Below, piece after piece: positions 25,120-58,560 of a stretch of DNA of 64,000 nt. A program made the translations under genes and the position numbers. A model generated the notes under the pieces. That model ran no database searches. It was not told the DNA's origin and was given only the letters and a program-made list of their open reading frames with translations. The stretch is taken from assembly GCF_963678635.1 (NCBI RefSeq), contig NC_087064.1, positions 45,985,437 to 46,049,436 of the forward strand, in the 5' to 3' direction. Position 1 is the stretch's first letter; each line of letters starts with the position of its first letter. Source of the DNA: Symsagittifera roscoffensis. Lineage: Eukaryota.

Positions 25120-25360
25120 TGTTAAGTTTCGGAGAAATGACCTCTCACTTTATAGAGAAGTCATTTCCCACTTTTTGGTTCAAAATAAGAACATGATTGG
25201 ATATCGCACGATGTCACGCGATATCGCGCGATGTCATATCAAGAAATCAGATCTCAACAGGCGGTTAACTTTCCATATATATAGAAGTTGATTTACTACT
25301 CTTTTATCGCTCTCTAATAAAACTGTTGATTATACCTAGTTTTGCTGCCAACCTGTGAAA
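25120..25360 (+). repeat. 3' LTR (241 bp).
   Basis: Direct repeat of 22386..22626. It is preceded by a polypurine tract and followed by TSD ACTTT. Confidence 0.75.
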
Positions 25361-26690: not shown

Positions 26691-29600
26691 ATAGTTATCC
26701 AGTAGAGAAAACAAAAATTAGCCAGCAAACATGTCCAAAATGTCCAACGATTATAGAGAACAAAAAATTGCAAATCGTTTTTTTAGCTCAGAAAATTTGT
26801 GGGAAAAAATCCTATTTCCGATGTAAAACCAATCAAAAAAATTAAGGAGAAACAAAACAAAATGAACAACGGCGCTCTAGTGACCACGTGCATAAAGCAA
26901 ATAAATTATAAGTTACCGAGCAAAAGCCCTTGAGAAAAACCGTTGAAGCATTTGGCTGTTCAATGATGATATTACCGGATATCTCAATGAAATTATTGGA
27001 GATCTGTACATTTTTGAGACTGTAAAATCTGTAAGTCTGACCAGGCTCCTGGGTTTCCAAAAAAATGTTTGTCAAGTCTCTAATGTTAGTGCATCATCGT
27101 AGATATCCTCCAAACATAATAAGCCATTCGCAGCGGGTTTGAAACAGACAGCCTGCTTGAAATTGACAATTTGTTTGGTTCTTAACGCCACTTCAGACCA
27201 CCAAAATGAATGATTCGATTGTCGAGTGATTAAGCTAATGACATAAATATTCAACGATTATTCGCGCCTCATGCAACTTGCTTCTCGCACGGAAACTCAA
27301 TTTCTGATTTGAGGCTATTTCTCAAGCTTTTTCAGAAGAACGGGCAAATATTTGGAGCTCATGATTTCCGAGACGGAGGTTCACTTAGTTTTTCTACTGA
27401 TTCGTAAGATACCAATTGTTAGTTAAGTTAGAAATGAGTTCAAACTTAAATGACCCGAATTTAAGTACATCCAAAAATACCTGCAAATTGAGATGAACAC
27501 AAATTGAATCAAACGATAGATCAAGCTTGTCATCCATCAACCTATACAAACAGGGGCAAATTAACGCTTCCATGTGGCGCTATTATTCATTTTAGGAAAA
27601 ATACTGGATGAACACCCATTTACTTTGACACGCTGCACTCGATTAACTAGGTAAGAATGAAATTATTCAAGACGACCCATAATAAACTTGTACTCCAATC
27701 GATAAAATGGGCTGTTTAACACAATTGTCACAATCACAGTCAAGAACTTGAAGCAACATCCCAAACTGCGTGACAAATGAACGACCTTTTTTGATCCCAT
27801 ATTGCTTATCATAAAACTCAGCTACGATCAAGGAAAAAGAAAAAATGAAAAAAACAAAATCAGATGAAAAACAACTGAGGTAAAATTGAAATCGGCCAAT
27901 AGTTTTTAGCTGATGGTTTATTCTCTTTTTTGTTGAGTACTGATTTAAATTATCCGGACAAATTGAGTTGATTTTAAATTAAAATGATGAAAACGAATTT
28001 TGCTTTAAATTTCAGCAGAATTAATATGTCGCAATTTGTTTGGCATAATTAGGGCCCAAAAATGCACAAAAAAAATCATTTATGGCTTTGTTTAGTATAT
28101 CAAAAATTACTCCAAACCTATTTGGTCATTTTGCTTACAAAACTATATCACTGCAAGCCTTTTATACAACCCAGCAAAATTTGAGAGAGGTATAATTTTC
28201 TCAGTTTTGTATAAATATTTATTTTCGTTTGAAAGCCAACCTATGTCGTTTTTACTATGAAAACATCATTTTATTTTTATTTAAAAAAATATGTTTTAAA
28301 CCTTTTGCGCCCACTATAGGAGATTACACCCTCTCAAACTTTGTTGGGCTTGCAGTGATATAGTTCTGTCAGAAAATGAACAAACAGGTTTGGAGCCATT
28401 TTTGATTGACTTAACAGAGCCAAAAATGATCTTTTTGGGGTAAATTTTTCGGCCCGAATTTTGCCAAACAAATTGCTCCACATCAATTTTTTCGCTATTT
28501 TAAGCAAGATTTGTCTTCGTCATTTTTTGTTTAAAATCAACCCCATTTAAGAAAAACGGGTTATAAATTTCAAGCTTTATTCATTTTGTCCGGATACTTT
28601 AAATCAGCACTGTATATTGGAGATATGAAGTTTTTCCCAAAGACGGCCACACGAGCAAAAATGGAGGTAAATGAAAAGACAAGATAAACAAATGGTCCGA
28701 GTAGGAAACATTGTAAGAGACAAGCACATTAAAAACCAATACAATCACGCACTTTTTTGAATGCTAGCAGGATTTCTGAATAAAAAAACTTTTTCAACGC
28801 TCGCAATGCCAAAAAACCGAGACACTTTATGATCCTGAAATCCTGAATGTGAAAAGCTATTGAATATCTTAACTTTGTCTATACTGTGTCAAGCTTCTTC
28901 GTTTTTTGAAAATAACTCTGATGAAAATTTTGATTTTTGATTTTTCAGCAAAAAGAAAGCCAGAAAATTGAAAAGATTTGAGAATTTTGCTGACGTTTCC
29001 AGCTCAATTAACTTCGGTAAATTCAACACAACTCTTGAACTAAAAATAGCATGACGTTTACGGAAAGTTCTGATAGATTTCAAGCACGTTAAAAGAGGAA
29101 ACTCGAATTAGGGAAATAGTAAACTTCGGCGACAATGGATGATTAATACGTGTATAAAGCCAAATTCAGACTCTAGTCGGTTAGTGAGACTCTGATCATT
29201 ATTTTTCTTTTTCCGATAGAGAAAAAAAAACTTAGCCGAAAAACATGTCCAAAATGTCCAACGATTATAGAGAACAAAAAATTGCAAATCGTTTTTTAGC
29301 TCAGAAAATTTGTGGGAAAAAATCCTATTTCCGATGTAAAACCAATCAAAAAATTAAGGAGAAACAAAACAAAATGAACAACGGCGCTCTAGTGACCACG
29401 TGCATAAAGCAAATAAATTATAAGTTACCGAGCAAAAGCCCTTGAGAAAAACCGCTGAAGCATTTGGCTGTTCAATGATGATATTACCGGATATCTCAAT
29501 GAAATTATTGGAGATCTGTAAATTTTTGAGACTGTAAAATCTATAAGTCTGACCAGGCTCCTGGGTTTCCAAAAAAATATTTGTCAAGTCTCTAATGTTA

Positions 29601-32600
29601 GTGCATCATCGTAGATATCCTCCAAAAACAATAAGCCATTCGCAGCGGGTTTGAAACAGACAGCCTGCTTGAAATTGACAATTTGTTTGGTTCTTAACGC
29701 CACTTCAGACCACCAAAATGAATGATTTGATTGTCGAGTGATTAAGCTAATGACATAAATATTCAACGATTATTCGCGCCTCATGCAACTTGCTTCTCGC
29801 ACGGAAACTCAATTTCTGATTTGAGGCTATTTCTCAAGCTTTTTCAGAAGAACGGGCAAATATTTGGAGCTCATGTTTTCCGAGACGGAGGTTCACTTAG
29901 TTTTTCTACTGATTCGTAAGATACCAATTGTTAGTTAAAATAGAAATGAGTTCAAACTTAAATGACCCGAATTTAAGTACATCCAAAAATACCTGCAAAT
30001 TGAGATGAACACAAATTGAATCAAACGATAGATCAAGCTTGTCATCCATCAACCTATACAAACAGGGGCAAATTAACGCTTCCATGAGTGCAATTATTCA
30101 TTTTAGGAAAAATACTGGATGAAAACCCATTTACTTTGACACGCTGCACTCAATTAACTAGGTAAGAATGAAATAATTCAAGACGACCCTTAATAAACTT
30201 GTACTCCAATCTATAAAATAGGCTGTTTAACATAATTGTCACAATCACAGTCAAGAACTTCAAGCAACATCCCAAACTGTGTGACAAATGAACGACCTTT
30301 TTTTTTGATCCCATAATGCTTATCATAAAACTCAGCTTCGATCAAGGAATAGAAATGAAAAAAAATAAATCAGATGAAAAACAACTGAGGTAAAATTGAA
30401 ATCGGCCGATAGTTTTTGGCTGATGGTTTATTCTCTTTTTTTTTGTTGAGTGCTGATTTAAATTATCCGGACGAATTGAGTTGATTTTAGATTAAAATGA
30501 TGAAAACGAATTTTGCTTTAAATATCAGCAGAATTAATACGTCGCAATTTGTTTGGCATAATCAGGGCCCAAAACTGCAAAAAAAAATCATTTTTGGCTT
30601 TGTTTAGTATATCAAAAATTACTTCAAACCTATTTCGTCATTAATTTACAAAAGTATGTCACTGCAAGCCTTTTATACAACCCAGCAAAACTTGACAGAG
30701 GTATAACTTTCTCAGTTTTGTATAAATATTTACTTTCGTTTGAAAGCCAACCTATGTCGTTTTTACTATAAAAACATCATTTTATTTTTAAAATAAAAAC
30801 ATGCTGTAAACCTTTTGCACCCACAATAGGAGATTACACCCTTCAAACTTTGTTGGGCTTGCAGTGATATAGTTCTGTCAGTAAATGAACAAATAGGTTT
30901 GGAGTAATTTTTGACTGACTTAACAGAGCCAAAAATGATCTTTTTGGGGTAAATTTGTCGGCCCGAATTTTGCCAAACAAATTGCTCCACATCAATTTTT
31001 TGGCAATTTTAAACAAGGTTGGTCTTCGTCATTTTTTGTCTAAAATCAACCCCATTTAAGCAAAACGGGTAATAAATTTCAAGCTTTATTCATTTTGTCA
31101 GGATACTTTAAATCAGCACTGTATATTGGAGATATGAAGTTTTTCCGAAAGACGGCCACACGATCAAAAATGGAGGTAAATGAAAAGACAAGATAAACAA
31201 ATGGTCGGAGTAGGAAACATTGTAAGAGACAAGCACATTAAAAACCAATACAAGCACGCACTTTTTTGAATGCTCGCAGGATATCTGAATAAAAAACTTT
31301 TTTTAACGCTCGCGATGCCAAAAAAAACGAGACATTCTATGGTCCTGAAATCCTAAATGAGAAAAGCTATTGAATATCTCAACTTTGTCTATAATGTGTC
31401 AAGCTTCTTCGTTTTTTAAAAGTTAGTCAGATAAAAAGTTTGATTTTTCAGCAAAAAGCAAGCCAGAAAATTGTAAAGATTTGAGAATTTTGCTGACGTT
31501 TCCAGCTCAATTAACTTCGGTAAATTCAACACAACTCTTGAACTAAAAATAGCATGACGTTTACGGAAAGTTCTGATAGATTTCAAGCACGTTAAAAGAG
31601 GAAACTCGAATTAGGGAAATAGTAAACTTCGGCGACAATGGATGATTATTACGTGTATAAAGCAAAATTCAGACTCCATTCGGTTAGTGAGACTCTGATC
31701 ATTATCTCCCTTTTTCGGTGAGGGCTCTTGTCTCAAAATCAATGTACGATGGCGCCAAAATCACTCTTAGAAAAATTTTAAGGTCGGTTGGCCAAAAGTT
31801 GATGGTCAGGGAATAGAAGTCACCCTAACACTAACTACCCCACCTAAATCGGCTATATAGCTCCGTTTTTTTTGAGTGCCCGATTCATTAATTTATGTCT
31901 TAGAAGCTCTAGCTTTTTCGGAAAAATTGAAACGCTAAAGCACCACGTTTTAACCAAACCATGAATTATAAAAAAAACCTAGATTGAAAATTTTGTTACG
32001 TAAGTAAAATATTTGACCTTCGAAGAAGTAGGTTTTTTGCTGAAGACATCTTCAGATTACAGCCGATACTGCGCTTTTCAGCCCTTTTGGTCTCAATTTA
32101 AGGTTAATCCAGGATAAGGTTTCATATCTCTGCGAGCTAATACCTAAACTGAAGATGTTAATATCGGGTTTATCCCATATGGAGAAAGAGATACAATATT
32201 AGTTCATTTGAATCCTCAAAAGATTTAAGTACTACCAAAAATTAGCATAAGAACTTCATTTTACAGTTCTGATTTAAATTAAACTAAATAACGAACAACA
32301 TTTGAAATTTTTAAATAATTATTCTCAAAACAGGTTAGTTTTAGAAAAAAAAGCAATGAAAACCGAAGTTGTTCAAAATTAAACCAGACTTAATAAAATA
32401 TTTATTGTTCCAACTTTCGATACGAAAGCAACGGAATATTTGTGCTCGGGTGGGTTTTTTTTTTCAGACAAATTTCGACTTTTTAACCAGGCATTTTTGA
32501 CGGAATTTTCAAAATATCATCCGAAAGCTATTGTTATCCTGAGCTTAAATTTGAAAATATATTTCACCTGTGACCTTTTTTCGTAAAGTTATGGGGGTTT

Positions 32601-33817
32601 AAAGATTGCCATTTTGGGACAATTAACGCGCGATATATTTCGCGCTATCAACCCGTAAGCGGAGAGTTAATCCGTCTTAGAAGTCGTTCCAAATTGGTTG
32701 AAAGAAACTTATTTGCCATAATTGATTTGTTACAAGGAGCGAAATCTATCCTGTTGTACTTCATATGGCGTGTGGGGGGATGATTTTCATAAAAAATTTC
32801 AAATTTAAAAAAAAACTTCATTTCATTCTATTATATTTAATTTTTTTTTGTTATTACTGCTCAATAAACCTCAAAAGTTTTTTATAAAATCAGATTCAAA
32901 AAGTCACAAAGTAAAACTGGGTCGTTTTGTTTAATCAAAAAGATACGCAAAATTACTAGGTCATCCTTTTAATGATTTGATAGAAAATGAGTACAATGAA
33001 TCAGCCAAATGAATCAGAAGGATATAAGCACAAGGCGTAAAAATTGGCCATTTTTTTGAAATTTATTTCAAACTTAAGGCTAGCCATTTTGTAGGAAAAA
33101 TACCCTGTTTGTCAGGTTTTGAATTCGAATTTCTTAAAACAATTTGCATCATACTATGGTTGATAAAATTCCAAGTAACTTAGGTTTGCATCCTCTAAAT
33201 TTACTGAAACTTGAACATATGAAGCTTTCTTTTGTAAAAGTCACATAGTTTTTAAGATATAAACTGTATTTTAAAAGGAGATGTTGCGTTTTTTCTTGAG
33301 TTGTTATATTTAACAAATAAGAGATAACAAAATCGAGAAAAAAGCTAAATATCTCAAGTTGTATAACAAGAAAAAACGAAACATCACAAGTTAAAATACA
33401 CAATTTGTATCTTCCAAAATACGTGGCTTTAACAAAATAGAGTTTCATAAAAGAGAGTTTTATATAATCTCAAACCTGGACTCTCCTTCTAGAGTCACTA
33501 AATAGATCAAAAGTTCTTTGGTGGTCAAATACTCTTTAAGCAAATATTTATTAACTTCCCAGACGGGGAAGGGGACAAGATCCAAACCAATGATAAACAT
33601 TGAGCATGGCCGCAAGTTACTGGAACAAGAGTTACTTAAATCAAAGAACAGAAATCAATCAAACTTTGTTTTCCTATATTTATTTAGAGAAACTTTTATA
33701 CAAGAGCTCAATTTCGAAAAACTGTATGATTGACGCAGCAAAGTATAAATAAGAAGCGTGACCACAAGTCACTGGAAAAAGTTAATCAAATCAAAGACAC
33801 AGAAAACAGTTAAATTA

Positions 33818-34105
33818 TGGGTGATATATTACAATAGGTGGTAATTTTAAATTAAATAGATGGATCATTTTTTGCTTTACTTCGCACAGTATATACAATT
33901 TATTTTAAAAGCCAATTTTTTTAAGCAAGAGTGTAAAATTTGAGTTTTTCAAAGGCACTTTATCTGGCAGAGTAATGTATTTGCAAAAACAATCTTAGCA
34001 GCATGTACAATTGATTGAAAATGAAATGACTATATTATGCATTACAGTTCTCAAATTTAATTCATGCACTGCAGTTAAAATTACCACCTATTGTAACATA
34101 TCACC
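33818..34105. mobile_element. MITE (about 288 bp) with 28-32-bp TIR GGTGATATATTACAATAGGTGGTAATTTT inside the V unit.
   Basis: Perfect inverted termini. The same insert lies at 42608..42894 in V2. Confidence 0.5.
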
Positions 34106-34437
34106 TTTTAATAACCTAAAATATTAAACATAATTTTGTATCGATTACTTTTTTTTGATCAATTGGACTAATTTATGTTGCCTTCGAAGAAGTTAATTTA
34201 TGAAAAACAGTCATTTTATCCCCCTCCCCTAAATCGATTGGGGGGTGTTTATTCTTTTTTTGAATAGTAATTTCTCTATGTCTGAAGCTCAATTTCAAAA
34301 ACTTATATAAATGACACAGATCGGCGCACTTTGCAATAAAAGCTTTCATGAAAATAATTAAAACAACGACGAAGCTGAACTTCTACCACTTGCGATGCAA
34401 ACATGACTACGATTAAAAAGCAAAAAAAAATTTACAA

Positions 34438-34890
34438 CATAGCCAATCGAAGATTGGAAAAGAGTATTGAACGCAAGTAAACATAAAAAAAACGTTCTTG
34501 AAAAAATCTCAACTTTCGAACTTCAAAGAAAAAAATAGATGCCCTTTCAGCTCTTTGAATTTCTAGAACAATTTATGATCGGCGCTTTTCTAATAACATA
34601 AACCCAACGTGAGAAAATTGGATCAACAGGTAAGTTTTTTATCCCGCTTGAAACCTAAAAATGAAATTCAACTTTCGAAACTAGAAATCATTCACGTTTT
34701 TTCTGCGCCATTTACACGTTCGTATTTCCACGGGTGCTATTTACGTCACTTTCATCATATGAATTTCAATTGAACTTAAAAGTGCATATATACCTAAGTG
34801 CATCAATACTTTGAGACTTTTTCCCGAAAAAAACTAAAACAAAAAATCAGCAAGACCTATTTAAGACTCTTCACTACGTTCATTACTCTT
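34438..34890 (+). mobile_element. MITE family A copy (in W1). Paralogous copies lie at 43221..43673 (W3) and 37250..~37300 (fragment).
   Basis: Same termini and internal sequence as the 17234..17690 copy. Confidence 0.6.
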
Positions 34891-37800
34891 GAAAAATGAA
34901 AAAAAAATCGCAGAAAAGAGGCCAATCTTTAAAAAAGAAACATTTCCCGCTGAAACTATGCTGACAAAAATCAGCAGACATAAGGTAGACTAAATTGCCG
35001 GAAAGTTTTAGTTTGCAAACAAAACAGATCCAGACTGGAAATGAACTCAGGGTTTCCTCGTTTCAATCATGGGTGTTATCACTGCGCCAAAAGTGCAGAA
35101 TACTCCTTGAATTTGAATTAATAATAAAGTAAGTCAACATTTGTAAAATTTTCATGCGCGAATCCTGTTAACAAGGGTAATAAGCACAAAAGAAACAAAC
35201 TGGTCGCTGCACAAGAACATAAGGTTCCGATCAGAACAATTCATGAACAAAAATTTAAAAAGAAGCGTTTTCTCTAATTTTCCAAAAAAAATTCTAAGTA
35301 GAAGGAATGCACAAAAAAATCTATCCAAAAGTGAGTAATGACCGTCCAAAAAAACTTAACAGCTGTAAGTAACAGCAAAAGGAAGTTATTATCCACTAGC
35401 CTGCAGTAAGTTACAATAAAATCATCACAGAGGCGAAACTGATTTTTACTCCACTAGCAATAAAAATAACTAAGATAAGAACAGCATGACGCTCAAGAAG
35501 TAGCAACTACAATTTCGAAGGATGTAAATGGAATTATTAAAACATAAAAAACTGGTGGTATGGGGCCACGAGTACTACAACACAAGAACAAAAAAGTTTG
35601 AAATGGAATTGCCCGTAGTATATAACCGACCTTGCATTCTACCGGAACCCATCTCACAACAACAAGAGCTTCTATTTGAAACTAAACTCAAATATTCCGT
35701 TACTTTCGTATCGAAAGTCGGAACAATAAATTATAAGTTACCGAGGAAAAGCCCTTGAGAAAAACCGTTGAAGCATTTGGCTGTTCAATTATGATATTAC
35801 CGGATATCTCAATGAAGTTATTGGAGATCTGTAAACTTTTGAGACTGTAAAATCTGTACGTCTGATCAGGCTCCTGGGTTTCCAAAAAAATGTTTGTCAA
35901 GTCTCTAATGTTAGTGCATCATCGTAGATATCCTCCAAAAATAATAAGCCATTCGCAGCGTGTTTGAAACAGACAGCCTGCTTGAAATTGAATTTGTTTG
36001 GTTCTTAACGCCAATTCAGACCACCAAAATGAATGATTCGAAATTTTGCCGAGTGATTAAGCTAATGGCATAAATATCCAACGATTATTCGCGCCTCATG
36101 CAACTTGCTTCTCCCATGGAAACTCAATTTCTGATTTGAGGATATTTCTCAAGCTTAGTTCAGAAGAACAGGCAAATATTTGGAGCTCATGATTACCGAG
36201 ATGGAGGTTCACTTAGTTTTCTCTTGATTCGTAAGATACCAATTGTTAGTTAAGTTAGAAATGAGTTCAAACTTAAATGACCCGAGCTTAAGTACACCCA
36301 AAAATACCTGCAAATTGAGATGAACACAAATTGAATCAAACAATAGATCAAGCTTGTCATCCATCAACCTTTACAAACAGGGGCAAATTAACGCTTCCAT
36401 GTGGCGCTATTATTCATTTTAGGAAAAATACTGGATGAACACCCATTTACTTTGACACGCTGCACTCGATTAACTACGTAAGAATGAAAATTTTCAAGAC
36501 GACCCTTAATAAACTTGTACTCCAATCGATAAAATGGGCTCTTTAACATAATTGTCACAATCACAGTCAAGAACTTCAAGCAACATCCCAAACTGCGTGA
36601 CAAATGAACGACCTTTTTTGATCCCATATTGCTTATCATAAAACTCAGCTTCGATCAAGGAAAAAGAAAAAAATGAAAAAAACAAAATCAGATGAAAAAC
36701 AACTGAGGTAAAATTGAAATCGGCCAATAGTTTTTAGCTGATGGTTTATTCTTTTTTGTTGAGTACTGATTTAAATTATCCGAACAAATTGAGTTGATTT
36801 TAAATTAAAATGATGAAAACGAATTTTGCTTTAAATTTCAGCAGAATTAATATGTCGCAATTTGTTTGCCATAATTAGGGCCCAAAAATGCACAAAAAAA
36901 ATCATTTATAGCTTTGTTTAGTATATCAAAAATTACTCCAAACCTATTTGGTCATTTTGCTTACAAAACTATATCACTGCAAGCCTTTTATACAACCCAG
37001 CAAAATTTGAGAGAGGTATAATTTTTTCAGTTTTGTATAAATATTTATTTTCGTTTGAAAGCCAACCTATGTCGTTTTTACTATGAAAACATCATTTTAT
37101 TTTTATTTAAAAAAATATGTTTTAAACCTTTTGCGCCCACTATAGGAGATTACACCCTCTCAAACTTTGTTGGGCTTGCAGTGATATAGTTCTGTCAGAA
37201 AATGAACAAACGGGTTTGGAGCCATTTTTGATTGACTTAACAGAGCCAAAGCAGACATAAGGTAGACTAAATTGCCGGAAAGTTTTAGTTTGCAAACAAA
37301 ACAGATCCAGACTGGAAATGAACTCAGGGTTTCCTCGTTTCAATCATGGGTGTTATCACTGCGCCAAAAGTGCAGAATACTCCTTGAATTTGAATTAATA
37401 ATAAAGTAAGTCAACATTTGTAAAATTTTCATGCGCGAATCCTGTAAACAAGGGTAATAAGCACAAAAGAAACAAACTGGTCGCTGCACAAGAACATAAG
37501 GTTCCGATCAGAACAATTCATGAACAAAAATTTAAAAAGAAGCGTTTTCTCTAATTTTCCAAAAAAAATTCTAAGTAGAAGGAATGCACAAAAAAATCTA
37601 TCCAAAAGTGAGTAATGACCGTCCAAAAAAACTTAACAGCTGTAAGTAACAGCAAAAGGAAGTTATTATCCACTAGCCTGCAGTAAGTTACAATAAAATC
37701 ATCACAGAGGCGAAACTGATTTTTACTCCACTAGCAATAAAAATAACTAAGATAAGAACAGCATGACGCTCAAGAAGTAGCAACTACAATTTCGAAGGAT

Positions 37801-39204
37801 GTAAATGGAATTATTAAAACATAAAAAACTGGTGGTATGGGGCCACGAGTACTACAACACAAGAACAAAAAAGTTTGAAATGGAATTGCCCGTAGTATCT
37901 AACCGACCTTGCATTCTACCGGAACCCATCTCACAACAACAAGAGCTTCTATTTGAAACTAAACTCAAATATTCCGTTACTTTCGTATCGAAAGTCGGAA
38001 CAATAAATTATAAGTTACCGAGGAAAAGCCCTAGAGAAAAACCGTTGAAGCATTTGGCTGTTCAATTATGATAATACCGGATATCTCAATGAAGTTATTG
38101 GAGATCTGTAAACTTTTGAGACTGTAAAATCTGTACGTCTGATCAGGCTCCTGGGTTTCCAAAAAATGTTTGTCAAGTCTCTAATGTTAGTGCATCATCG
38201 TAGATATCCTCCAAAAATAATAAGCCATTCGCAGCGTGTTTGAAACAGACAGCCTGCTTGAAATTGAATTTGTTTGGTTCTTAACGCCAATTCAGACCAC
38301 CAAAATGAATGATTCGAAATTTTGCCGAGTGATTAAGCTAATGGCATAAATATCCAACGATTATTCGCGCCTCATGCAACTTGCTTCTCCCATGGAAACT
38401 CAATTTCTGATTTGAGGATATTTCTCAAGCTTAGTTCAGAAGAACGGGCAAATATTTGGAGCTCATGATTACCGAGATGGAGGTTCACTTAGTTTTTCTC
38501 TTGATTCGTAAGATACCAATTGTTAGTTAAGTTAGAAATGAGTTCAAACTTAAATGACCCGAGCTTAAGTACACCCAAAAATACCTGCAAATTGAGATGA
38601 ACACAAATTGAATCAAACAGTAGATCAAGCTTGTCATCCATCAACCTTTACAAGCAGGGGCAAATTAACGCTTCCATGTGGCGCTATTATTCATTTTAGG
38701 AAAAATACTGGATGAACACCCATTTACTTTGACACGCTGCACTCGATTAACTACGTAAGAATGAAAATTTTCAAGACGACCCTTAATAAACTTGTACTCC
38801 AATCGATAAAATGGGCTCTTTAACATAATTGTCACAATCACAGTCAAGAACTTCAAGCAACATCCCAAACTGTGTGACAAATGAACTACCTTTTTTGATT
38901 ACATAATGCTTATCATAAAACTCAGCTTCGATCAAGGAATAGAAAAAATGAAAAAAAAATAAATCAGATGAAAAACAACTGAGGTAAAATTGAAATCGGC
39001 CAATAGTTTTTAGCTGACGGTTTATTCTCTTTTTTGTTGAGTGCTGATTTAAATTATCCGGACAAATTGATTTAATTTTAAATTAAAATGATGACAACAA
39101 ATTTTTTGCTTTAAATTTCAGCAGAATTAAAATTTCGCAATTTGTTTGGCATAAATAGGGCCCGAAATTGCACAAAAAAAATCATTTTTGGTTTTGCTTA
39201 GTAT

Positions 39205-39553
39205 GGCGGAATCCCTCATGCGCGAAGGATCGAATGCGCGAAAATACAAATCAGATTCCAGTAATCTAAAATTTGCAAAGAAAGCAAACATTTCCAGGGA
39301 CTAGAATATTGATATTGGCCGAATATAAAAACGGCAGAATATGCAAAATTTTCGAATTGTCACTGACCGCCGCCGCATTGGAACAAATTTCATATTTCAA
39401 GGGTTTCGTTATAAAAGAAGCGAACTATTGCTTCATTTAATTGAATGGCAATTGCTTCTTTTCAAAATTTGACTTTCGGCTAATTTTATTTTCGGTCATT
39501 CGCTCACAAGTTTTTTCGCGCGTTTGGTCCTTCGCGCATGACAATAGCCCCCA
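39205..39553. mobile_element. MITE-like insertion (about 349 bp, imperfect ~30-bp TIR …TCATGCGCGAAGGA…) present only in the U4 copy; TSD ~TTAGTAT.
   Basis: Paralogous U copies at 28085, 30595 and 36910 read …gctttgtttagtatatcaaaa… uninterrupted. U4 reads …cttagtat[insert]tttagtatatc…. Confidence 0.55.
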
Positions 39554-42500
39554 TTTAGTATATCAAAACTACTCCAAACCTATTTCGTCATTAATTTACA
39601 AAAGTATGTCACTGCAAGCCTTTTATACAACCCAGCAAAACTTGACAGAGGTATAACTTTCTCAGTTTTGTATAAATATTTACTTTCGTTTGAAAGCCAA
39701 CCTATGTCGTTTTTACTATAAAAACATCATTTTATTTTTAAAATAAAAACATGCTGTAAACCTTTTGCACCCACAATAGGAGATTACACCCTCTCAAATA
39801 TTGTTGGGCTTGCAGTGTTATAGTTCTGTCAGTAAATGAACAAATAGGTTTGGAGTAATTTTTGATTGACTTAACAGAGCCAAAAATGATCTTTTTTGGG
39901 GTAAATTTTTCGGCCCGAACTTTGCCAAACAAATTGCTCCACATCAAAGTTTTGGCAATTTTAAGCCAGATTGGTCTTCGTCATTTTTTGTCTAAAATCA
40001 ACCTCAATTAAGAAAACGGTATTTAAATTTCAAGCTTTATTCATTTTGTCCGGATACTTTAAATCAGCACTGTATATTGGAGATATGAAGTTTTTCCGAA
40101 AGACGGCCACACGAGCAAAAAAAATTGAGGTAATTGAAAAGACAAGATAAACAAATGGTCCGAGTAGGAAGCATTGTAAGAGACAAGCACATTAAAAACC
40201 AATACAAGCACGCACTTTGCTCGCAGGATATCTGAATAAAAAACTTTTTTAACGCTCGCAATGCCAAAAAAACGAGACATTCTATGGTTCTGAAATCCTG
40301 AATGAGAAAAGCTATTGAATATCTCAACTTTGTCTATGCTGTGTCAAGCTTCTTCGTTTTTTGAAAATTAGTCTGATGAAAATTTTGATTTTTGATTCTT
40401 CAGCAAAAAAAGCCAGAAAATTGAAAAGATTTGAGAATTTTGCTGACGTTTCCAGCTCAATCAACTTCGGTAAATTCAACACTACTCTTGAATTTAAAAA
40501 TAGCATGACGTTTACGGAAATTTCCGATAGACTTCAAGCACGGTAAAGGAGGAAACTCGAATTAGGGAAATAGTAAACTTCGGCGACAATGGATGATTAA
40601 TACGTGTATAAAGCAAAATTCAGACTCCATTCGGTTAGTGAGACTCTGATCATTATCTCCCTTTTTCGGTGAGGGCTCTTGTCTCAAAATCAATGTACGA
40701 TGGCGCCAAAATCACTCTAAGAAAAATTTTAAGGTCGGTTGGCCAAAAGTTGATGGTCAGGGAATTGAAGTCACCCTAACACTAACTAACCCACCTAAAT
40801 CGGCTATATAGGTTTGGTTTTTCTGAGTGTCCGATTCATTAATTTATTTCTTACAAGCTCTAGCTTTTTCGGAAAAATTGAAACGCTAAAGCACCACGTT
40901 TTAACCAAACCATGAATTATAAAAAAACTCGATTAAAAATTTTGTTACGTAAGTAAAATATTTGACCTTCGAAGAAGTAGGTTTTTTGCTGAAGACATCT
41001 TCAGATTACAGCCGATACTGCGCTTTTCAGCCCTTCATTTTACAGTTCTGATTTAAATTAAACTGACTAACGAACAACATTTGAAATTTTTAAATAATTA
41101 TTCTCAAAACAGGTTAGTTTTAGAAAAAAAAGCAATGAAAACCGAAGTTGTTCAAAATTAAACCAGACTTAATAAAATATTTATTGTTCCAACTTTCGAT
41201 ACGAAAGTAACGGAATATTTGTGCTCGGGTGGGTTTTTTTTCTTCAGACAAATTTCGACTTTTTAACTAGGCATTTTTGACGGAATTTTTAAAATATCAT
41301 TCGAAAGCTATTGTTATTCTGAGCTTAAATTTGAAAAGATATTTCACCTGTGACCAATTTTCGTAAAGTTATGGGGGTTTAAAGATTGCCATTTTGGCCA
41401 ATTTGGGACAATTACCGCGCGATATATTTCGCGCTATCAACCCGTAAGCGGAGAGTTAATCCGTCTTAGAAGTCGTTCCAAATTAGTTGAAAGAAGCTTA
41501 TTTGCCATAATTGATTTGTTACAAGGAGCGAAATCTATCCTGTTGTACTTCATATGGCAAGTGGGGGGATGATTTTCATAAAAAATTTCAAATTAAAAAA
41601 AAAACTTCATTTCATTCTATTATATTTAATTTTTTTTTGTTATTACTGCTCAATAAACCTCAAAAGTTTTTTATAAAATCAGATTCAAAAAGTCACAAAG
41701 TAAAACTGGGTCGTTTTGTTTAATCAAAAAGATACGCAAAATTACTAGGTCATCCTTTTAATGATTTGATAGAAAATGAGTACAATGAATCAGCCAAATG
41801 AATCAGAAGAATATAAGCACAATGCGTAAAAATTGGCCATTTTTTTGAAATTTTTTTCAAAATTAAGGCTAGCCATTTTGTAGGAAAAATACCCTGTTTA
41901 TCAGGTTTTGAATTCCAATTTCTTAAAACAATTTGCATCATACTATGGTTGATAAAATTCCAAGTAACTTAGGTTTGCATCCTCTAAATTTACTGAAACT
42001 TGAACATATGAAGCTTTCTTTTGTAAAAGTCACATAGTTTTTAAGATATAAACTGTATTTTAAAAGGAGATGTTGCGTTTTTTCTTGAGTTGTTATATTT
42101 AACAAATAAGAGATAACAAAATCGAGAAAAAAGCTAAATATCTCAAGTTGTATAACAAGAAAAAACGAAACATCACAAGTTAAAATACACAATTTGTATC
42201 TTCCAAAATACGTGGCTTTAACAAAATAGAGTTTCATAAAAGAGAGTTTTATATAATCTCAAACCTGGACTCTCCTTCTAGAGTCACTAAATAGATCAAA
42301 AGTTCTTTGGTGGTCAAATACTCTTTAAGCAAATATTTATTAACTTCCCAGACGGGGAAGGGGACAAGATCCAAACCAATGATAAACATTGAGCATGGCC
42401 GCAAGTTACTGGAACAAGAGTTACTTAAATCAAAGAACAGAAATCAATCAAACTTTGTTTTCCTATATTTATTTAGAGAAACTTTTATACAAGAGCTCAA

Positions 42501-42607
42501 TTTCGGAAAACTGTATGATTGACGCAGCAAAGGATAAATAAGAAGCATGACCACAAGTCACTGGAAAAAGTTAATCAAATTAAAGACACAGAAAACAGTT
42601 AAATTAT

Positions 42608-42894
42608 GGGTGATATATTACAATAGGTGGTAATTTTAAATTAAATAGATGGATCATTTTTTGCTATACTTCGCACAGTATATACAATTTATTTTAAAAG
42701 CCAATTTTTTTAAGCAAGAGTGTAAAATTTGAGTTTTTCAATAGCACTTTATCTGGCAGAGTAATGTATTTGCAAAAACAATCTTAGCAGCATGTACAAT
42801 TGATTGAAAATGAAATGACTATATTATGCAATACAGTTCTATAATTTAATTCATGCACTGCAGTTAAAATTACCACCTATTGTAACATATCACC
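42608..42894. mobile_element. Second copy of the V-unit MITE, duplicated together with the unit.
   Basis: Identical TIRs and an identical position within the unit. Confidence 0.5.
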
Positions 42895-45689
42895 TTTTAA
42901 TAACCTAAAATATTAATCATAATTTTGTATCGATTACTTTTTTTTTATCAATTAGACTAATTTATGTTGCCTTCGAAGAAGTTAATTTATGAAAAACAGT
43001 CATTTTATCCCCCTCCCCTAAATCGATTGGGGGGTGTTTATTCTTTTTTTGAATAGTAATTTCTCTATGTCTGAAGCTCAATTTCAAAAAATTATATAAA
43101 TGACACAGATCGGCGCACTTTGCAATAAAAGCTTTTGCATTAAAACAACGGCGAAGCTGAACTTCCGTCACTTGCGATGCAAACATGACTACGATTAAAA
43201 AGCAAATAAAAAATTTACAACATAGCCAATCGAAGATTGGAAAAGAGTATTGAACGCAAGTAAACATAAAAAAAACGTTCTTGAAAAAATCTCAACTTTC
43301 GAACTTCAAAGAAAAAAATAGATGCCCTTTCAGCTCTTTGAATTTCTAGAACAATTTATGATCGGCGCTTTTCTAATAACATAAACCCAACGTGAGAAAA
43401 TTGGATCAACAGGTAAGTTTTTTATCCCGTTTGAAATCTAAAAATGAAATTCAACTTTCGAAACTAGAAATCATTCACGTTTTTTCTGAGCCATTTATAC
43501 GTTCGTATTTCCACGGGTGCTATTTACGTCACTTTCATCATATGCATTTCAATTGAACTTAAAAGTGCATATATACCTAAGTGCATCAATACTTTGAGAC
43601 TTTTTTCCCGAAAAAAACTAAAACAAAAAATCAGCAAGACCTATTTAAGACTCTTCACTACGTTCATTACTCTTGAAAAATCAAAAAAAAATCGCAGAGA
43701 AGAGGCCAATCTTTAAAAATAAACATTTCCCGCTGAAACTATGCTGACAAAAATCAGCAGATATAAGATAGATTAAATTGCCGGAAAGTTTTAGTTTGCA
43801 AACAAAACAGGTCCAGACTGGAAATGAACTCAGGGTTTCCTCGTTTCAATCATGGGTGTTACCACTGCGCCAAAAGTGCAGAATACTCCTTGAATTTGAA
43901 TTAATAATAAAGTAAGTCAGCATTTGTAAAATTTTCATGCGCGAATCCTGTTAACAAGGGTAATAAGCACAAAAGAAACAAACTGGTCGCTGCACAAGAA
44001 CATAAGGTTCCGATCAGAACAATTCATGAACAAAAACTTAAAAAGAAGCGTTTTCTCTAATTTTCCACAAGTAGAAGGAATGCACAAAAAATTCTATCCA
44101 AAAGTGAGTAATGACCGTCCAAAAAATCTTAACAGCTGTAAGTAACAGCAAAAGGAAGTTATTATCCACTAGCCTGCAGTAAGTTACAATAAAATCATCA
44201 CAGAGGCGAAACTGATTTTCACTCCACTAGCAATAAAAATAACTAAGATAAGAACAGCATGACGCTCAAGAAGTAGCAACTACAATTTCGAAGAATGTAA
44301 ATGGAATTATTAAAACATAAAAAAACTGGTGGTATGGGGCCACGAGTACTACAACACAAGAACAAAAAAGTTTGAAATGGAATTGCCCGTAGTATCTAAC
44401 CGACCTTGCATTCTACCGGAACCCATCTCACAACAACAAGAGCTTCTATTTGAAACTAAACTCAATCCGCAATGTATAATCTTAGGAAGTTCATGTAACA
44501 ACGAATAAGGTATCGAAAAGGTCTATTTCTTTCAAACCCTTCGTGCTTTGTCTAACAGAATCTAGAAACTGAGTTCAATCTCTCTTCAAGCCATTCGTTA
44601 ATGTAAGATCAGCTTTGTTTGAAATTCGAACGCTTTAACCTCACTTCATTTACCTCCTATTTTTACACGCCCCTTTTTTATCATCCGATAACATAATAAC
44701 CACCTTCAAGTTAACCCCTTTTAATTTTGAAAATTCGCTGCGAATTAAAATTCTTCTCAAACCAAATAGTTATCAAATTGAGTATACTGATTGACGCCAG
44801 ATGAGTATATAACTCACTTGATGCACTTAGTCACACAAAGATGATTGCGTTTCAGTTAGCAATAGAAATAGTCGCTCACTCAAGCTTTTGAAGCAGATAA
44901 CGTCTATGGTGCTCAATGAAGGCATCATGAGACGTTTGTGGATTTCAACTGAAAAAATACTGCCTTACTTGATAAAAAACAAACACTTACATCATTGTTA
45001 AATAATTCTATCATTATAATAATTGAAGTGTTGGTGTCCAAGAAAAACAAATACTTAAGGTATCAGCCCACAAGGACTATCTAAAACACTCGAACAAAAT
45101 AACTGCCATTTGAAATTGCTTATAGTATAAAACACAAATGCCGTGAAACAACAATTACGAAAGACGATATTCTTGAAACCAGGGGTGAACATTATCACGA
45201 CATTTTCACGAAAAGAAACCGATGAGACTAATTTCAAAAATATCAAGTATTTGAGTTATAGTGTTATCTCTACAATCGATTCGCGGAACATTTTGCCATT
45301 TTGCCACGCATTTAGCCCTACCAGCAACACAAACAATAGTTCAAACTTCTAAAAACACATGAGCAAGCCACGAGAACAGGATGTACCAGTCTCTCAAGCA
45401 ACCAGCAGTTTCAAAACATCTAAACTATTAGATATTTATAATAAGGTCGACAGTGGAAAAAACCTAATGAAGGTCGCCGAAAGAAATAAGTTCGCTCAGC
45501 GACCCTAAAAAGTTAAGCATACTAGAAAAATTTAACTTTGGTTGGCTGACGGCATTTTCTTAAAACATTTTATGAACTTTACTGCGTGCAAGTAAGTCTG
45601 TCAAAAAGAGCACCTGCTTGAAAATTTGCGTTCTTGCAAAAAAGTGAAAAGCCCTGAAAATACTACACCCTGGCAGTAATAGAGAAACA

Positions 45690-51170: not shown

Positions 51171-51685
51171 CATAAGGGATAAATCATTTCGTTCATTAAC
51201 CCTCCTTTAAATTTAGCAAGAGATTTCTTCAAAAAAAGACGTAAATGCATGATAATTCAAGTTCATTTCATTCATCAACAAGTGTTACAAATCATCAACA
51301 ATCACTAAAGTAAAATAGCATTTAGACGAAATAAACCAAGCCCTAGTAACAACAACATCGCCAAGAAAAGGCCCGTTGAAACGAAAAAAAGTGTGACCAT
51401 AACAAAAAAATTGGATTTTTTAAAAGCCCCTGCGAAACACATGCACATCTATTTTTGTCAATCAAAATACACAACGTTATGCCGACCATACCGATCAAAA
51501 ATAAGCAGAAACAGAAAAAGTAAACAGAAAAAAACTAGTGAATTTCTGAAACAATTTCAATTTTCGAAGAAAAAATTTACTCCCTTCAAAATCTTCGATT
51601 TTCTAGAACCATTTAGGATTGGCGCTTTTTGAAAAAAGTAACCAAACTTGAGAAAACTATCAATTATTAAAATTTTTATTTTGCT

Positions 51686-54630
51686 GGGAAATCTGAAAAA
51701 CAAATTCCACTTTCGAAACTAGAAACCGATCACGTTTTTCGTGATCTTTACACTTTTGCGGTTCGATAGTGGATTTTTCCTTTCTTTGAATAGTAGAAAT
51801 GAGCTGAACTTAAAAAGAAATTGAAAGTCAAACCGCGAAAGAAATTGAAAGTCAAAATTTTAGCACTTTTCCTGAAAAAACAAACGAACACAAAATTCAT
51901 CGCGACCTATAAAAGAGTCTGAACTACGATCATCCAAAAGTTGTTAAATCAGAAGAAAAGTCAGAGAAAAGTTAAATCAGAAGAAAATTGAATTTAATAA
52001 AACTTTAATTCCAGATCAATAGTTTCAAGTTTTAATAAATAGTATTACAGAGGTGAAGCGGAAAACTTCGCATCACTTGTGATAGATCTTATTTAGAGCA
52101 GGACAAACAAGCTAGTCGACACAAAAGGTGCAAGTCAAAAAACGGTCAGAAACGATCGCAAACTAGGCCCATAAAAATAAGAGATTTGTTATGAAGAAAG
52201 CTCGACAAAGAAAACAAACCGAGAAACAAAACAGCCAGTAGTAAGTAAAAAAGCATTGAAAAAAATCTGAATCAGTAACTAAGCCGATTAAACTTGGGTA
52301 GACGCTCGTAGAGTCGAAAATATCTGTCATAAAATTTCAAGCTACAAAAAAATTTCTTAACTCGAAGTTTTCAAATTTCACATTACCCTCTTACGCACGC
52401 GATGGAAAAAATAACGATGTCATTCAAACAACAAAAAGCGGTTAAACACATATAAAAGTAGCCGGATCCTTTATTTACGCTAGAACTGTTTCAAAGGAAA
52501 AAAGGAAAGTAGATAAAATCTGAGCTAATTTACAACCAACATGAACGCAAACATTGACGAGATTTGAGACTCAAAATACTGACATGCGGAAAATATGTAC
52601 GTGAAGTCACCCTCTCAGAATTGACTAATTCTTACAAAGTTGTAAAATGGCAAAAAAATAAAGTTCCCGATTAAAAGACACATGCTCTCGCAAGTATAAT
52701 ATGACAAACAATTTGACCTCAGATTCAGTGAAAACAAGGAGACCTTTCAACTAATGTTGCTAAGCAATTTGGCAATGACAGATGTAAAAAATATCAATCA
52801 TTCAATACCCATCGTAACTTGTTAGGGTGCTTTTTAACGTTTCACGAAACTCTTGAGCGAAACTTGCAACCTTTGTTATCTGAAAACAAGAGCAATAAAA
52901 AGAACACCAAAAAATCAAAAACGAAGCAGTTAAAGAAACATAGCCAACAGAGAGATGGGAAAGAACGCAAGGAAACGAAAAAAATCCTGATTTGTTTTTT
53001 GTAAAAAAAAAATAAACTTTTACTTTCGAACTTCAGAGAAAAAAATAGGGCCTTGCAGCTCTTTAGGTTCCAAGAACATTTAATGATTGACACTTTTTGA
53101 TTTAAAAAAAATAAGCCAAAGTGAGAAAACTGGATCAATAGGTTAATTTTTTCCACTGGGAAATCTGAAAAACAAATTCCACTTTCGAAACTAGAAACCG
53201 ATCACGTTTTTCGTGATCTTTACACTTTTGCGGTTCGATAGTGGATTTTTCCTTTCTTTGAATAGTAGAAATGAGCTGAACTTAAAAAGAAATTGAAAGT
53301 CAAACCGCGAAAGAAATTGAAAGGCAAAATTTTAGCACTTTTCCTGAAAAAAACAAACGAACACAAAATTCATCGCGACCTATAAAAGAGTCTGAACTAC
53401 GATCATCCAAAAGTTGTTAAATCAGAAGAAAAGTCAGAGAAAAGTTAAATCAGAAGAAAATTGAATTTAATAAAACTTTAATTCCAGATCAATAGTTTCA
53501 AGTTTTAATAAATAGTATTACAGAGGTGAAGCGGAAAACTTCGCATCACTTGTGATAGATCTCATTTAGAGCAGGACAAACAAGCTAGTCGACACAAAAG
53601 GTGCAAGTCAAAAAACGGTCAGAAACGATCGCAAACTAGGCCCATAAAAATAAGAGATTTGTTATGAAGAAAGCTCGACAAAGAAAACAAACCGAGAAAC
53701 AAAACAGCCAGTAGTAAGTAAAAAAGCATTGAAAAAAATCTGAATCAGTAACTAAGCCGATTAAACTTGGGTAGACGCTCGTAGAGTCGAAAATATCTGT
53801 CATAAAATTTCAAGCTACAAAAAAATTTCTTAACTCGAAGTTTTCAAATTTCACATTACCCTCTTACGCACGCGATGGAAAAAATAACGATGTCATTCAA
53901 ACAACAAAAAGCGGTTAAACACATATAAAAGTAGCCGGATCCTTTATTTACGCTAGAACTGTTTCAAAGGAAAAAAGGAAAGTAGATAAAATCTGAGCTA
54001 ATTTACAACCAACATGAACACAAACATTGACGAGATTTGAGACTCAAAATACTGACAAGCGGAAAATATGTACGTGAAGTCACCCTCTCAGAATTGACTA
54101 ATTCTTACAAAGTTGTAAAATGGCAAAAAAATAAAGTTCCCGATTAAAAGACACATGCTCTCGCAAGTATAATATGACAAACAATTTGACCTCAGATTCA
54201 GTGAAAACAAGGAGACCTTTCAACTAATGTTGCTAAGCAATTTGGCAATGACAGATGTAAAAAATGTCAATCATTCAATACCCATCGTAACTTGTTAGGG
54301 TGCTTTTTAACGTTTCATGAAACTCTTGAGCGAAACTTGCAACCTTTGTTATCTGAAAACAAGAGCAATAAAAAGAACACCAAAAAATCAAAAACGAAGC
54401 AGTTAAAGAAACATAGCCAACAGAGAGATGGGAAAGAACGCAAGGAAACGAAAAAAATCCTGATTTGTTTTTTGTAAAAAGAAAATAAACTTTTACTTTC
54501 GAACTTCAGAGAAAAAAATAGGGCCTTGCAGTTCTTTAGGTTTCAAGAACATTTAATGATTGACACTTTTTGATTTAAAAAAAATAAGCCAAAGTGAGAA
54601 AACTGGATCAATAGGTTAATTTTTTCCACT
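51686..54630 (+). repeat. Tandem duplication, 2 x ~1472 bp (51686-53157 and 53158-54630), nearly identical.
   Basis: Long stretches are identical, including the duplicated ORFs 52819..53004 and 54292..54477. A third unit begins at 54631 and diverges after about 25 bp. Confidence 0.8.
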
Positions 54631-54702
54631 GGGAAATCTGAAAAACTAAATCTCTCTTTCGATAATAGAAGTCGTTCACATTTTTTGCGCCAGTTTCGCT
54701 TT

Positions 54703-54733
54703 CGCAATCAGAGAGAGAGAGAGAGAGAGAGAG
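54703..54733. repeat. (GA)n microsatellite.
   Basis: Sequence cagagagagagagagagagagagcgc. Confidence 0.9.
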
Positions 54734-57179: not shown

Positions 57180-58560
57180 TCGGTGCTTCGAAGTTTTTCG
57201 ACAACTTATGAAAAACCGCATATATTGGAAACAACATCTGCAAAATTTTAGTGTACTGTGACTGCACCCAATTACAGGGTTGGTAATTTCGAACTTTTAA
57301 ACTTTCTTTTTATTACCATTTTGAAAGCGTCATCTCGAAAACTTAATGGGCCTCTGGAGAACTTTGGAGGCCAGATTTGCAACCACTGAGAGTCCCTGAG
57401 AGCACCCTACTATAGGGTTAGGAATCCAAAATTTTGTGAATTTTTTAAACCTAAGTTTCCCGAAAAAAAAAATTGAAAAAAAACGTCTTATCTCGAAAAC
57501 TAAAAGGATTTGAGCATTCGTATTAAAAGGCAAGATTTGAGACGCCTGGGTGTACAATGACAATAAGGTTGCATTTTCATCAAGTTAGTAGTTTCAAACT
57601 TTTTTGAATTTCTTTGTAGATAAGTTTTTTGAGAAACTTTGAAAAAAATCAAAAAACGTCACATCTCGGGAAACTAAAAGCATTTGAGCAGTCGCGTTTA
57701 ACAGTCGTATGTGGCAAGATTTGCAACTCTTTAGAGTACCCTGACAACACCGAACTATACCGTTGGAAAATTCAAATTGTGCAAACTAATTAATATAAAC
57801 TTTCTGAAAATTTTGAAAAAATCACAAAAAACGTCACCTCTCGAAAACTACAAAGAATTGAGCAACCATAATTGGAGGCAAGATTCGCAATCCTTGAAAG
57901 TACTCTGACAGGACCTAACTACAGGGTTGGGAATTTCATACTTTTGAAGAAAAATAATTTAAGTTTTCTGAAAACTTTTGAAAAAATCACAAACGTCATA
58001 TCTCGAAAACTACAAAGAATTGAGCAGTCAAACTTAGAGGCGAGATTTGCAATCTTTGAGAGTACTCTGACAGGACCTAACTACAGGGTTAGGAATTTCA
58101 GATTTTGCAAAAAAAAATTAACATTGGTTTTCTGAAAACTTTTTGAAAAAATCAAAAAACGTCATATCTCAAAAAATACAAAGATTTGAACAGTCATATT
58201 TGGAGGCAACGCTTGTAACTCCTTAGAGTACTCTGACGGCACCCAACTACAAGGTTGGAAATTTCAGATTCATAGAAAAATAATCATAACTTAAGTTTTC
58301 TGAAAATTTTTGAAAAAAATCACAAAAAACGTCATATCTCGAAAACTACAATAATTTGAACAGTCATATTTGGAGGCAAGATTTGTAACTCCTTAGAGCT
58401 CTCTGACAGCACCCAACTACACGGTTGGGAACTTCAAGTTTTGTAAATGATTTAATTATTTGAAATTTCTGAAAACTTTTGAAAAAACTCAAAAATCGTC
58501 TTATCTCGTTAATTAAAATGATTCGGGCATTCAAAATTGGAGGCCAAATTCGCAACCCCT
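57180..58560 (+). repeat. Satellite-like tandem array of about 8 units of 165-172 bp.
   Basis: The unit contains …CGTCATATCTCGAAAACTACAAAGAATTGAGCAG…GAGGCAAGATTTGCAA…CTACAGGGTTGGGAATTTCA and recurs at 57330, 57483, 57657, 57830, 57994, 58160, 58330 and 58497. Confidence 0.7.

Follow-up and report, generated by a model that had tools for sequence, protein, structure and literature searches.

A MITE-like insertion in one unit of a segmental repeat array of Symsagittifera roscoffensis and its place in the history of the array

Can an element that sits in one copy of a repeat and is missing from the others tell us in which order the repeat and the element arose? This question is raised by a 64,000-nucleotide stretch of the Symsagittifera roscoffensis genome (contig NC_087064.1, positions 45,985,437 to 46,049,436 of the forward strand), called the window below; coordinates refer to the window unless another contig or locus is named. 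The window contains four copies of a repeat named U (U1–U4), and U4 is interrupted by an insert of about 350 bp that resembles a miniature inverted-repeat transposable element (MITE). The original prediction, made from the sequence alone, held that the MITE transposed after the U duplications, that a second foldback element shared by the neighbouring units V and V′ predates the duplication of V, and that both together provide a relative chronology. The insert is best explained as a MITE-type class II insertion that in all likelihood took place once, in the U4 lineage. The proposed timing was partly right: the insertion would postdate the split of U4 from the U1 and U2 lineages, but ‘after the U duplications’ is too simple as the number of empty units is polymorphic.

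The filled site and its empty counterparts

Self-BLAST and block mapping resolved the locus into preU-Ul-Um-Ur (U1, 26695–29213), a second preU-Ul-Um-Ur (U2, 29209–31716), V (31717–34972), P-Ul-Um (U3, 34973–37250), P-Ul-MITE-Um-Ur (U4, 37250–40667), V′ (40667–43755) and a final P (43756–44465). As no U-like sequence was found outside the locus in ~230 kb of other loci, we regard U as a local segmental repeat and not as a dispersed element. The uninterrupted target, the 21-mer GCTTTGTTTAGTATATCAAAA, has exactly three exact matches in the window where none would be expected by chance: at 28085–28105 in U1, 30597–30617 in U2 and 36911–36931 in U3, all on the forward strand. In a four-way alignment U4 is collinear with U1–U3 apart from one clean extra block that splits this 21-mer. 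The boundary of this single insert coincides with a duplicated TTAGTAT, a sequence of which each of the three empty copies has one and U4 two, and the filled site reads ...TTTTGCTTAGTAT / GGCGGAATCCC TCATGCGCGAAGGA ... TCCTTCGCGCATGA CAATAGCCCCC AT / TTAGTAT ATCAAAA.... The exact-match count and the alignment agree with what had been predicted for the four copies, an interrupted target in U4 and intact ones in U1, U2 and U3.

With ends 5′-GGCGG...CCCCC-3′ the insert comprises 348 bp (39205–39552, forward strand), corresponding to a symmetric reading with a 9-bp target-site duplication (TSD); if the duplication is read as 7 bp, it comprises 350 bp (39205–39554). The predicted size of 349 bp lies inside this range, which is set by how the TSD is read. 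The insert has a GC content of 39% compared to 34% in the flanks and is small and noncoding, the longest stop-free stretch being 56 codons. Folded as single-stranded DNA, it adopts a single long hairpin structure of −62 kcal/mol (shuffled sequences: −41 ± 3.6 kcal/mol, z = −5.84), and it resembles its own reverse complement across insert positions 24–301.

A perfect 14-nt core, TCATGCGCGAAGGA, is found at 39216–39229 and as its reverse complement at 39528–39541; these are its only two matches in the window. The inverted repeat extends to 32 nt with 28/32 matching positions (88%), including the 14/14 of the core, and the imperfect terminal inverted repeat (TIR) of the original prediction is hereby confirmed. 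What had been overlooked is that the perfect core is subterminal: outside of it lie 11 weakly matching nucleotides (4/11) at each end. When the element is taken as 39205–39552, the terminal 43 nt match at 4/11, 14/14 and 14/18 positions, both cores are 11 nt away from the ends, and the ends read 5′-GGCGG and 5′-GGGGG. The left TIR (39205–39247, forward strand) is accordingly composed of the 11 weak nucleotides GGCGGAATCCC, the core and 18 nt with 14/18 matches; the right TIR (39510–39552, reverse strand) reads GGGGGCTATTG TCATGCGCGAAGGA CCAAACGCGCGAAAAAAC as reverse complement.

The TTAGTAT copies flanking the insert are located at 39198–39204 and 39555–39561 (forward strand) and form a perfect duplication over 7 bp when compared with the empty sites, as predicted. 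This reading leaves asymmetric ends, with 11 and 13 nt to the core. An 8-bp reading, TTTAGTAT, contains one mismatch and is also asymmetric (11 versus 12 nt), whereas an alternative 7-bp reading, TTTAGTA, gives an element starting at T with 12 nt on both sides. In the 9-bp reading the flanks are GCTTAGTAT (39196–39204) and ATTTAGTAT (39553–39561): the empty sites carry GTTTAGTAT once, each flank differs from it by one transition, and the two are identical to each other at 7/9 positions. The TSD can be read as 7, 8 or 9 bp, and a single copy of the insert cannot discriminate between these lengths. Shorter duplications of TA or 3 bp (TWA) would leave ends without inverted symmetry and would need a chance 5-bp repeat in the flanks; for lack of that symmetry we exclude Tc1/mariner and PIF/Harbinger. 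Taken together, the TIRs, the hairpin, the target duplication and the contrast of filled and empty sites make it reasonable to call the insert a MITE-like non-autonomous class II DNA transposon without coding capacity.

The target itself lies in an older structure. Every full U holds a foldback of ~676 bp (27936–28611 in U1, 30449–31120 in U2 and 39040–40071, MITE included, in U4), of which U3 retains only the left arm, at 36762. The outer arms match over 31 nt at 87–90% and the arms overall at ~68–83%; this host of the insertion is itself probably a MITE or foldback element of greater age. The MITE is located in its left arm and is therefore a nested insertion. A mirror relationship within the host palindrome between the MITE site and the joint of U3 with the following P segment was considered and rejected, the joint being ~20 nt off the mirror position.

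Superfamily and search for relatives

The length of the duplication had been taken to suggest hAT or a similar superfamily. TIRs of hAT elements typically start with YARNG and the preferred hAT target is nTnnnnAn, while G-rich termini are common among Mutator-like elements (MULEs). The 8-bp reading would be possible for hAT and fits this target preference, but it makes the ends asymmetric with respect to the core. The insert ends, GGCGGAATCCC and (T)GGGGGCTATTG, begin with GGCGG and (T)GGGGG instead of YARNG; since moreover the TSD comes out as 7, 8 or 9 bp with different placements of the ends, the hAT suggestion is not established. Furthermore, hAT elements have 8-bp TSDs and TIRs of only 8–23 bp (PMC2528002).

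Merlin (IS1016-like) elements are defined by TIRs of 24–462 bp, a conserved terminal 5′-GG and TSDs of 8 or 9 bp, and highly imperfect TIRs have been documented in some Merlin families (PMC8101967). The left end of the insert starts with GG and so does the right end in the 9-bp reading, which is the only reading with GG-initial ends equidistant from the core; an 8-bp TSD would also be possible. The insert differs from Merlin in that its 9-bp TSD requires two substitutions (one for 8 bp) and in that neither a transposase nor a related autonomous element was identified for it. A MULE-derived MITE would share the G-rich ends, although MULE TIRs are usually long and no link to a transposase was found. 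The TSDs of MULEs are 9 bp long (PMC2528002), as in the symmetric reading. Based on the GG termini and this reading, Merlin or MULE would fit at least as well as hAT, and no superfamily is assigned.

With respect to MITEs in general, the insert resembles known elements in its size of ~350 bp, its noncoding nature, its TIRs, hairpin potential and TSD, and in its nesting within another repeat. However, MITE families normally have many copies, whereas this insert is single in the ~390 kb searched and its extreme termini match poorly. Neither the search with the 14-nt core nor the self-comparison revealed another copy in the window, and none was present in ~230 kb of independent loci drawn from the ENA assemblies described below. 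In ~120 kb around copies of a Gag-only element (±10 kb, on other contigs; see below) we found no copy of the insert, of the V-unit element or of U-like sequence. All in all, DNA searches of ~323 kb of fetched loci, together with the window ~390 kb, gave no additional copy of the insert or the V-unit element. Multiple dispersed copies, as expected for a MITE, were thus not observed in these ~390 kb, which are only a part of the genome and provide weak negative evidence. Scanning metagenome contigs with the 14-nt core yielded single chance matches in unrelated contigs, a 14-mer being too short a query for such a collection, and BLAST of the full insert against these contigs gave no match. A 71-aa open reading frame (ORF) spanning the MITE end and the U flank had no candidates in a collection of 5.8 billion proteins, and the concatenated six-frame stop-free stretches of both MITEs returned nothing at E ≤ 10 from the same collection. 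A scan of the window with Rfam gave no matches.

Haplotypes, conversion and the order of events

In order to place the insertion relative to the duplications, other versions of the locus are informative. A 99-aa ORF common to V and V′ led to two contigs of the ENA assembly ERZ25071366, and two other ORFs of the window led to one contig of ERZ25878734; for the ORF at 42962–43267 nothing was on record. All three contigs are 99–99.9% identical to the window where they are collinear with it, and none is identical to it. The array (26695–44465 in the window; loci L132–L137) varies in its number of units. The window carries U1, U2, V, U3, U4 with the MITE and V′, i.e. three empty sites and one filled. 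Haplotype H1 (ctg21516l, ERZ25071366) consists of one U at the U1/U2 position, V, a single P-Ul-MITE-Um-Ur and V′ (one empty, one filled), and H3 (ctg20359l, ERZ25071366) of U1, U2, V, two U3-type units (U3a and U3b) and U4 with the MITE (four empty, one filled). H4 (ctg24344l, ERZ25878734) contains U1 and U2, both empty, and part of V up to a deletion joint, with neither MITE nor U3. There are thus one or two units at the U1/U2 position and zero, one or two empty U3-type units, so that the four haplotypes have 1, 2, 3 or 4 empty U units. In contrast, the MITE does not vary in position: the window, H1 (0/348 differences) and H3 (3 SNPs), the three haplotypes in which the site is preserved, have it at the identical site between identical flanks.

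The missing MITE in H4 might be mistaken for an ancestral empty allele. The H4 joint, GATACGATATT/TACAAAAGTATG, links window position 32200 to 39591 with a microhomology of 3 bp. To its left, U1 and U2 are followed by only the first ~484 bp of V; to its right, U4-type Um sets in at about +30 and shows further small deletions, and identity to the window reaches 99.77% from 40373 onward. About 7.4 kb are missing, comprising V, U3, the left part of U4 and the MITE. The complex deletion region (L137 18269–18626, corresponding to window 31945–39591) includes 84 bp of filler with Ul variants of the U4/U3 type, although Ul of this kind is missing from H4. Taken with the adjoining nucleotides, a 15-bp insertion, AAAATACAAATCAGA, matches MITE positions 39241–39257 exactly over 17 nt; apart from MITE copies, this 17-mer (AAAATACAAATCAGATT) occurs nowhere else in the window and the 323 kb of loci. 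A 5-bp insertion matches the same MITE segment. On account of these fillers, H4 is best read as derived from a MITE-bearing chromosome by a complex deletion with template-switch filler, and not as an ancestral empty allele. In its pattern the allele resembles a product of template-switch or theta-mediated repair. The 580 bp beside the deletion are ~8% diverged from the U4 of the window, which is unusually high.

Sliding-window identities and distance matrices over all U copies showed that U4 is a mosaic. Between positions −1200 and −420, counted from the insert, U4 differs from U3 by 0.1–0.8% and from U1 and U2 by 4–6%. The 415 bp immediately to the left of the insert (38790–39204, forward strand) are 6.5–9.7% diverged from every other U copy in all haplotypes. 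To the right, from 0 to +320, U4 is 2.5–2.8% from U2 and 9.5–10% from U1 and U3. On closer view, this similarity comes down to a U2-like patch of ~220 bp at 39562–39790 (forward strand) with 2 differences in ~225 nt (~99%) to U2 30610–30842, which begins at most 13 bp from the right-hand duplication; beyond about +232 the divergence between U4 and U2 is back to ~6–7%. Divergence changes abruptly at the insert (Fisher p = 1e-4 when the 300 nt on its left are compared with the 300 nt on its right). The simplest reading would be a short gene-conversion tract between U2 and U4 that was ended by the 350-bp heterology of the MITE, a tract whose direction and timing we infer; since it ends at the MITE, the MITE would already have been present when conversion occurred. 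In this respect the locus resembles known insertions that act as conversion barriers, where tracts likewise end at a large heterology.

The empty U3 requires similar caution. It is chimeric: its P and left Ul are U4-like (0.1–0.8%), its right Ul and Um are U1-like (0–1.9%), and it is joined to the following P (37225–37260) by a microhomology junction, ...GAGCCAA/AGCAGAC... (...GAGCCAA/AGCAGACATAAGG), that defines a tandem unit of 2277 bp. Judged by its divergence of 0–1.9% from U1 around the site, U3 was here copied or converted from U1 not long ago. The empty copies therefore amount to two independent witnesses rather than three, the lineages U1 (= U3) and U2. U3-type units are ≤1% from their sources, comparable with allelic divergence. 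Because of this, and as the empty units are polymorphic whereas the MITE site is common to the site-retaining haplotypes, the U3-type units are probably younger than the MITE insertion, although continuing homogenisation prevents a firm order between U3 and the MITE.

The older reference point is the V-unit element, a MITE-like foldback over its whole length at 33820–34105 in V and 42609–42894 in V′ (both forward strand), with the TIR GGTGATATATTACAATAGGTGGTAATTTTAA matching at 30/31 positions. The two copies are 97.9% identical, V and V′ overall 97.3%. No TSD was recognisable when looked for, and without a TSD and an empty site we label this element only MITE-like. Its predicted presence before the duplication of V is supported, as it is found in every V copy of the four haplotypes. 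A separate observation concerns a 50–64-nt stretch of the V-unit element that is 72–77% similar to the left arm of the host foldback. V and V′ also differ by a segment of ~167 bp at 32087–32253, present in V (and H4) and missing in V′ (41033–41035); it has CTT microhomology at its bounds and no TIRs, and its absence from V′ is probably a deletion.

From these distances, the MITE insertion is bracketed between the 6–10% split of U4 from U1 and U2 and the ≤0.9% divergence of the haplotypes. The proposed chronology holds for the V-unit element and the V/V′ duplication, while the order within U is blurred by copy-number change and conversion. The data support the following order: the V-unit element would come first, followed by the V/V′ duplication that placed a U beside each copy, insertion of the MITE into the U4 lineage, the U2/U4 conversion and, as the latest events, the addition or removal of U1- and U3-type units and the deletion seen in H4. 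There is one discrepancy: in the presumed 6.3-kb unit the U part is diverged by 6–7%, the V part by 2.7%.

Explanations of the insert and what it means for the locus

A single MITE-type class II insertion in the U4 lineage is in our view the likely origin of the insert. In this case a DDE transposase acting in trans would have bound the inverted ends of the non-autonomous element, integration would have taken place at a 7–9-bp staggered cut in GTTTAGTAT, in the left arm of the older foldback, and repair of the staggered cut would have produced the flanking duplication. This would have happened after U4 had split from the U1 and U2 lineages and before the present haplotypes diverged. Since then the MITE would have been a passive 350-bp heterology that marks the end of the ~220-bp U2/U4 conversion tract, while unequal exchange and microhomology-mediated duplication would have added and removed empty U units around it, and one haplotype would have lost the MITE in a 7.4-kb complex deletion leaving short MITE-templated filler. 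Several observations weigh against such an insertion: the 4/11 matches in the outermost nucleotides are unusual for termini recognised by a transposase; the length of the TSD is ambiguous, and the duplication is imperfect under the 8-bp (one substitution) and 9-bp (two) readings; no second copy that would speak for a mobile family turned up in the window, the ~230 kb of loci or the translated searches; and the left flank of U4 has no counterpart among the sampled paralogues.

The last point would be accounted for if the divergent left flank and the MITE had been imported together from an unsampled U paralogue, in which case the contrast of filled and empty copies dates a conversion and not a transposition. 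Conversion is clearly active in the array, and the 415 bp left of the insert, diverged from all sampled U copies, lie between a segment close to U3 and one close to U2. However, no U-like sequence turned up outside the locus in the ~230 kb of other loci, and the pattern is equally explained by a U4 that kept an old lineage while neighbouring segments were overwritten; we consider the import unlikely. Less probable still is that the insert is a palindromic or templated product of error-prone break repair bounded by chance microhomology. Such a product could be single-copy in ~390 kb, its outer 11 nt could match poorly, and the locus demonstrably underwent template-switch repair with filler DNA; but neither the window nor the haplotypes contain a template for 350 bp, the GC content of the insert differs from that of the flanks, and a 7–9-bp target duplication with symmetric 32-nt inverted repeats is a signature of transposition.

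The polarity of the change also has to be considered, as the 350 bp could be ancestral to U, with recombination between the TTAGTAT repeats having removed them from the other copies. A 7-bp direct repeat could mediate such a deletion, and U4, whose left flank is about equally far from U1 and from U2, is a possible outgroup. On the right flank, though, U4 groups with U2 (2.5–2.8%) against U1 (7.9–9.5%), so that one insertion suffices where otherwise two identical deletions are needed, each of which would have to excise exactly a TIR-bounded hairpin. In addition, the arms of the host foldback are continuous across the empty site, and the empty state therefore fits the older palindrome. We regard an ancestral insert as very improbable. 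An additional role of the MITE insertion is proposed tentatively and seems rather doubtful: the MITE might be a structural hotspot, whose hairpin or attempted excision caused the break in H4 and whose heterology blocks conversion and partitions the array into independently evolving segments. This idea is based on the right H4 breakpoint, 39 bp from the MITE end, and on its fillers of 15 and 5 bp, for which the inside of the MITE would have served as template.

Several other repeats and genes were noted in the window and the fetched loci. A copia-type Gag-only element lies between 241-bp direct repeats (97%) at 22386–25360; its gag ORF (273 aa, 23628–24449) encodes a Retrotran_gag_2 domain and two CCHC knuckles. 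On contig ctg11387c this element forms a tandem array with a period of ~2.7 kb, in which long terminal repeats (LTRs) and gag alternate (LTR-gag-LTR-gag...), and many copies of 85–94% identity exist elsewhere; besides the window, the observation covers the whole of locus L002 and positions 1069–5788 of L001. An interspersed repeat of ~400–500 bp has at least eight copies in the window that are 62–77% identical (4624–4986, 13626–13950, 17211–17694, 34415–34918, 43197–43711, 51555–52008, 53025–53481 and 61251–61703), and it also occurs in other contigs of the same assemblies. Satellite-like arrays with a period of ~162–172 bp and 65–80% matches are found at 9917–10956, 17692–18586 and 57219–58560; the arrays at 9.9–10.9 kb and 17.7–18.6 kb are related to each other, and the one at 57–58 kb has relatives in L130 and L131. 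The region 51555–54705 is a tandem duplication with a 1469-bp unit (51555–53231 versus 53024–54705, 95.4%). On contig ctg21979l an ORF of the ILVD_EDD (dihydroxy-acid dehydratase) family (L126, 15893–16825) has a PHD/WSD gene and a gag copy within a few kb. Other fetched loci contain DEG/ENaC and DIRP genes (Pfam), and the genome otherwise looks animal-like.

What can the MITE then tell about the age of the duplications? Duplications have been dated by transposable elements on the principle that a shared insertion predates the duplication and a private one postdates it, and the V-unit element and the MITE follow the same logic. The difference is that the present array is still changing copy number and converting; with such ongoing exchange, a private insertion bounds only the oldest split. 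Beyond the locus the significance is small: this is real but ordinary transposon and segmental-duplication biology, and what is new is one uncharacterised element in an animal-like genome, all phenomena involved being already known. As a caution, where an array still exchanges sequence, the count of empty paralogues makes the evidence look stronger than it is. The haplotype series could be used to illustrate, on a small scale and with natural alleles, what an insertion heterology does to conversion and rearrangement.

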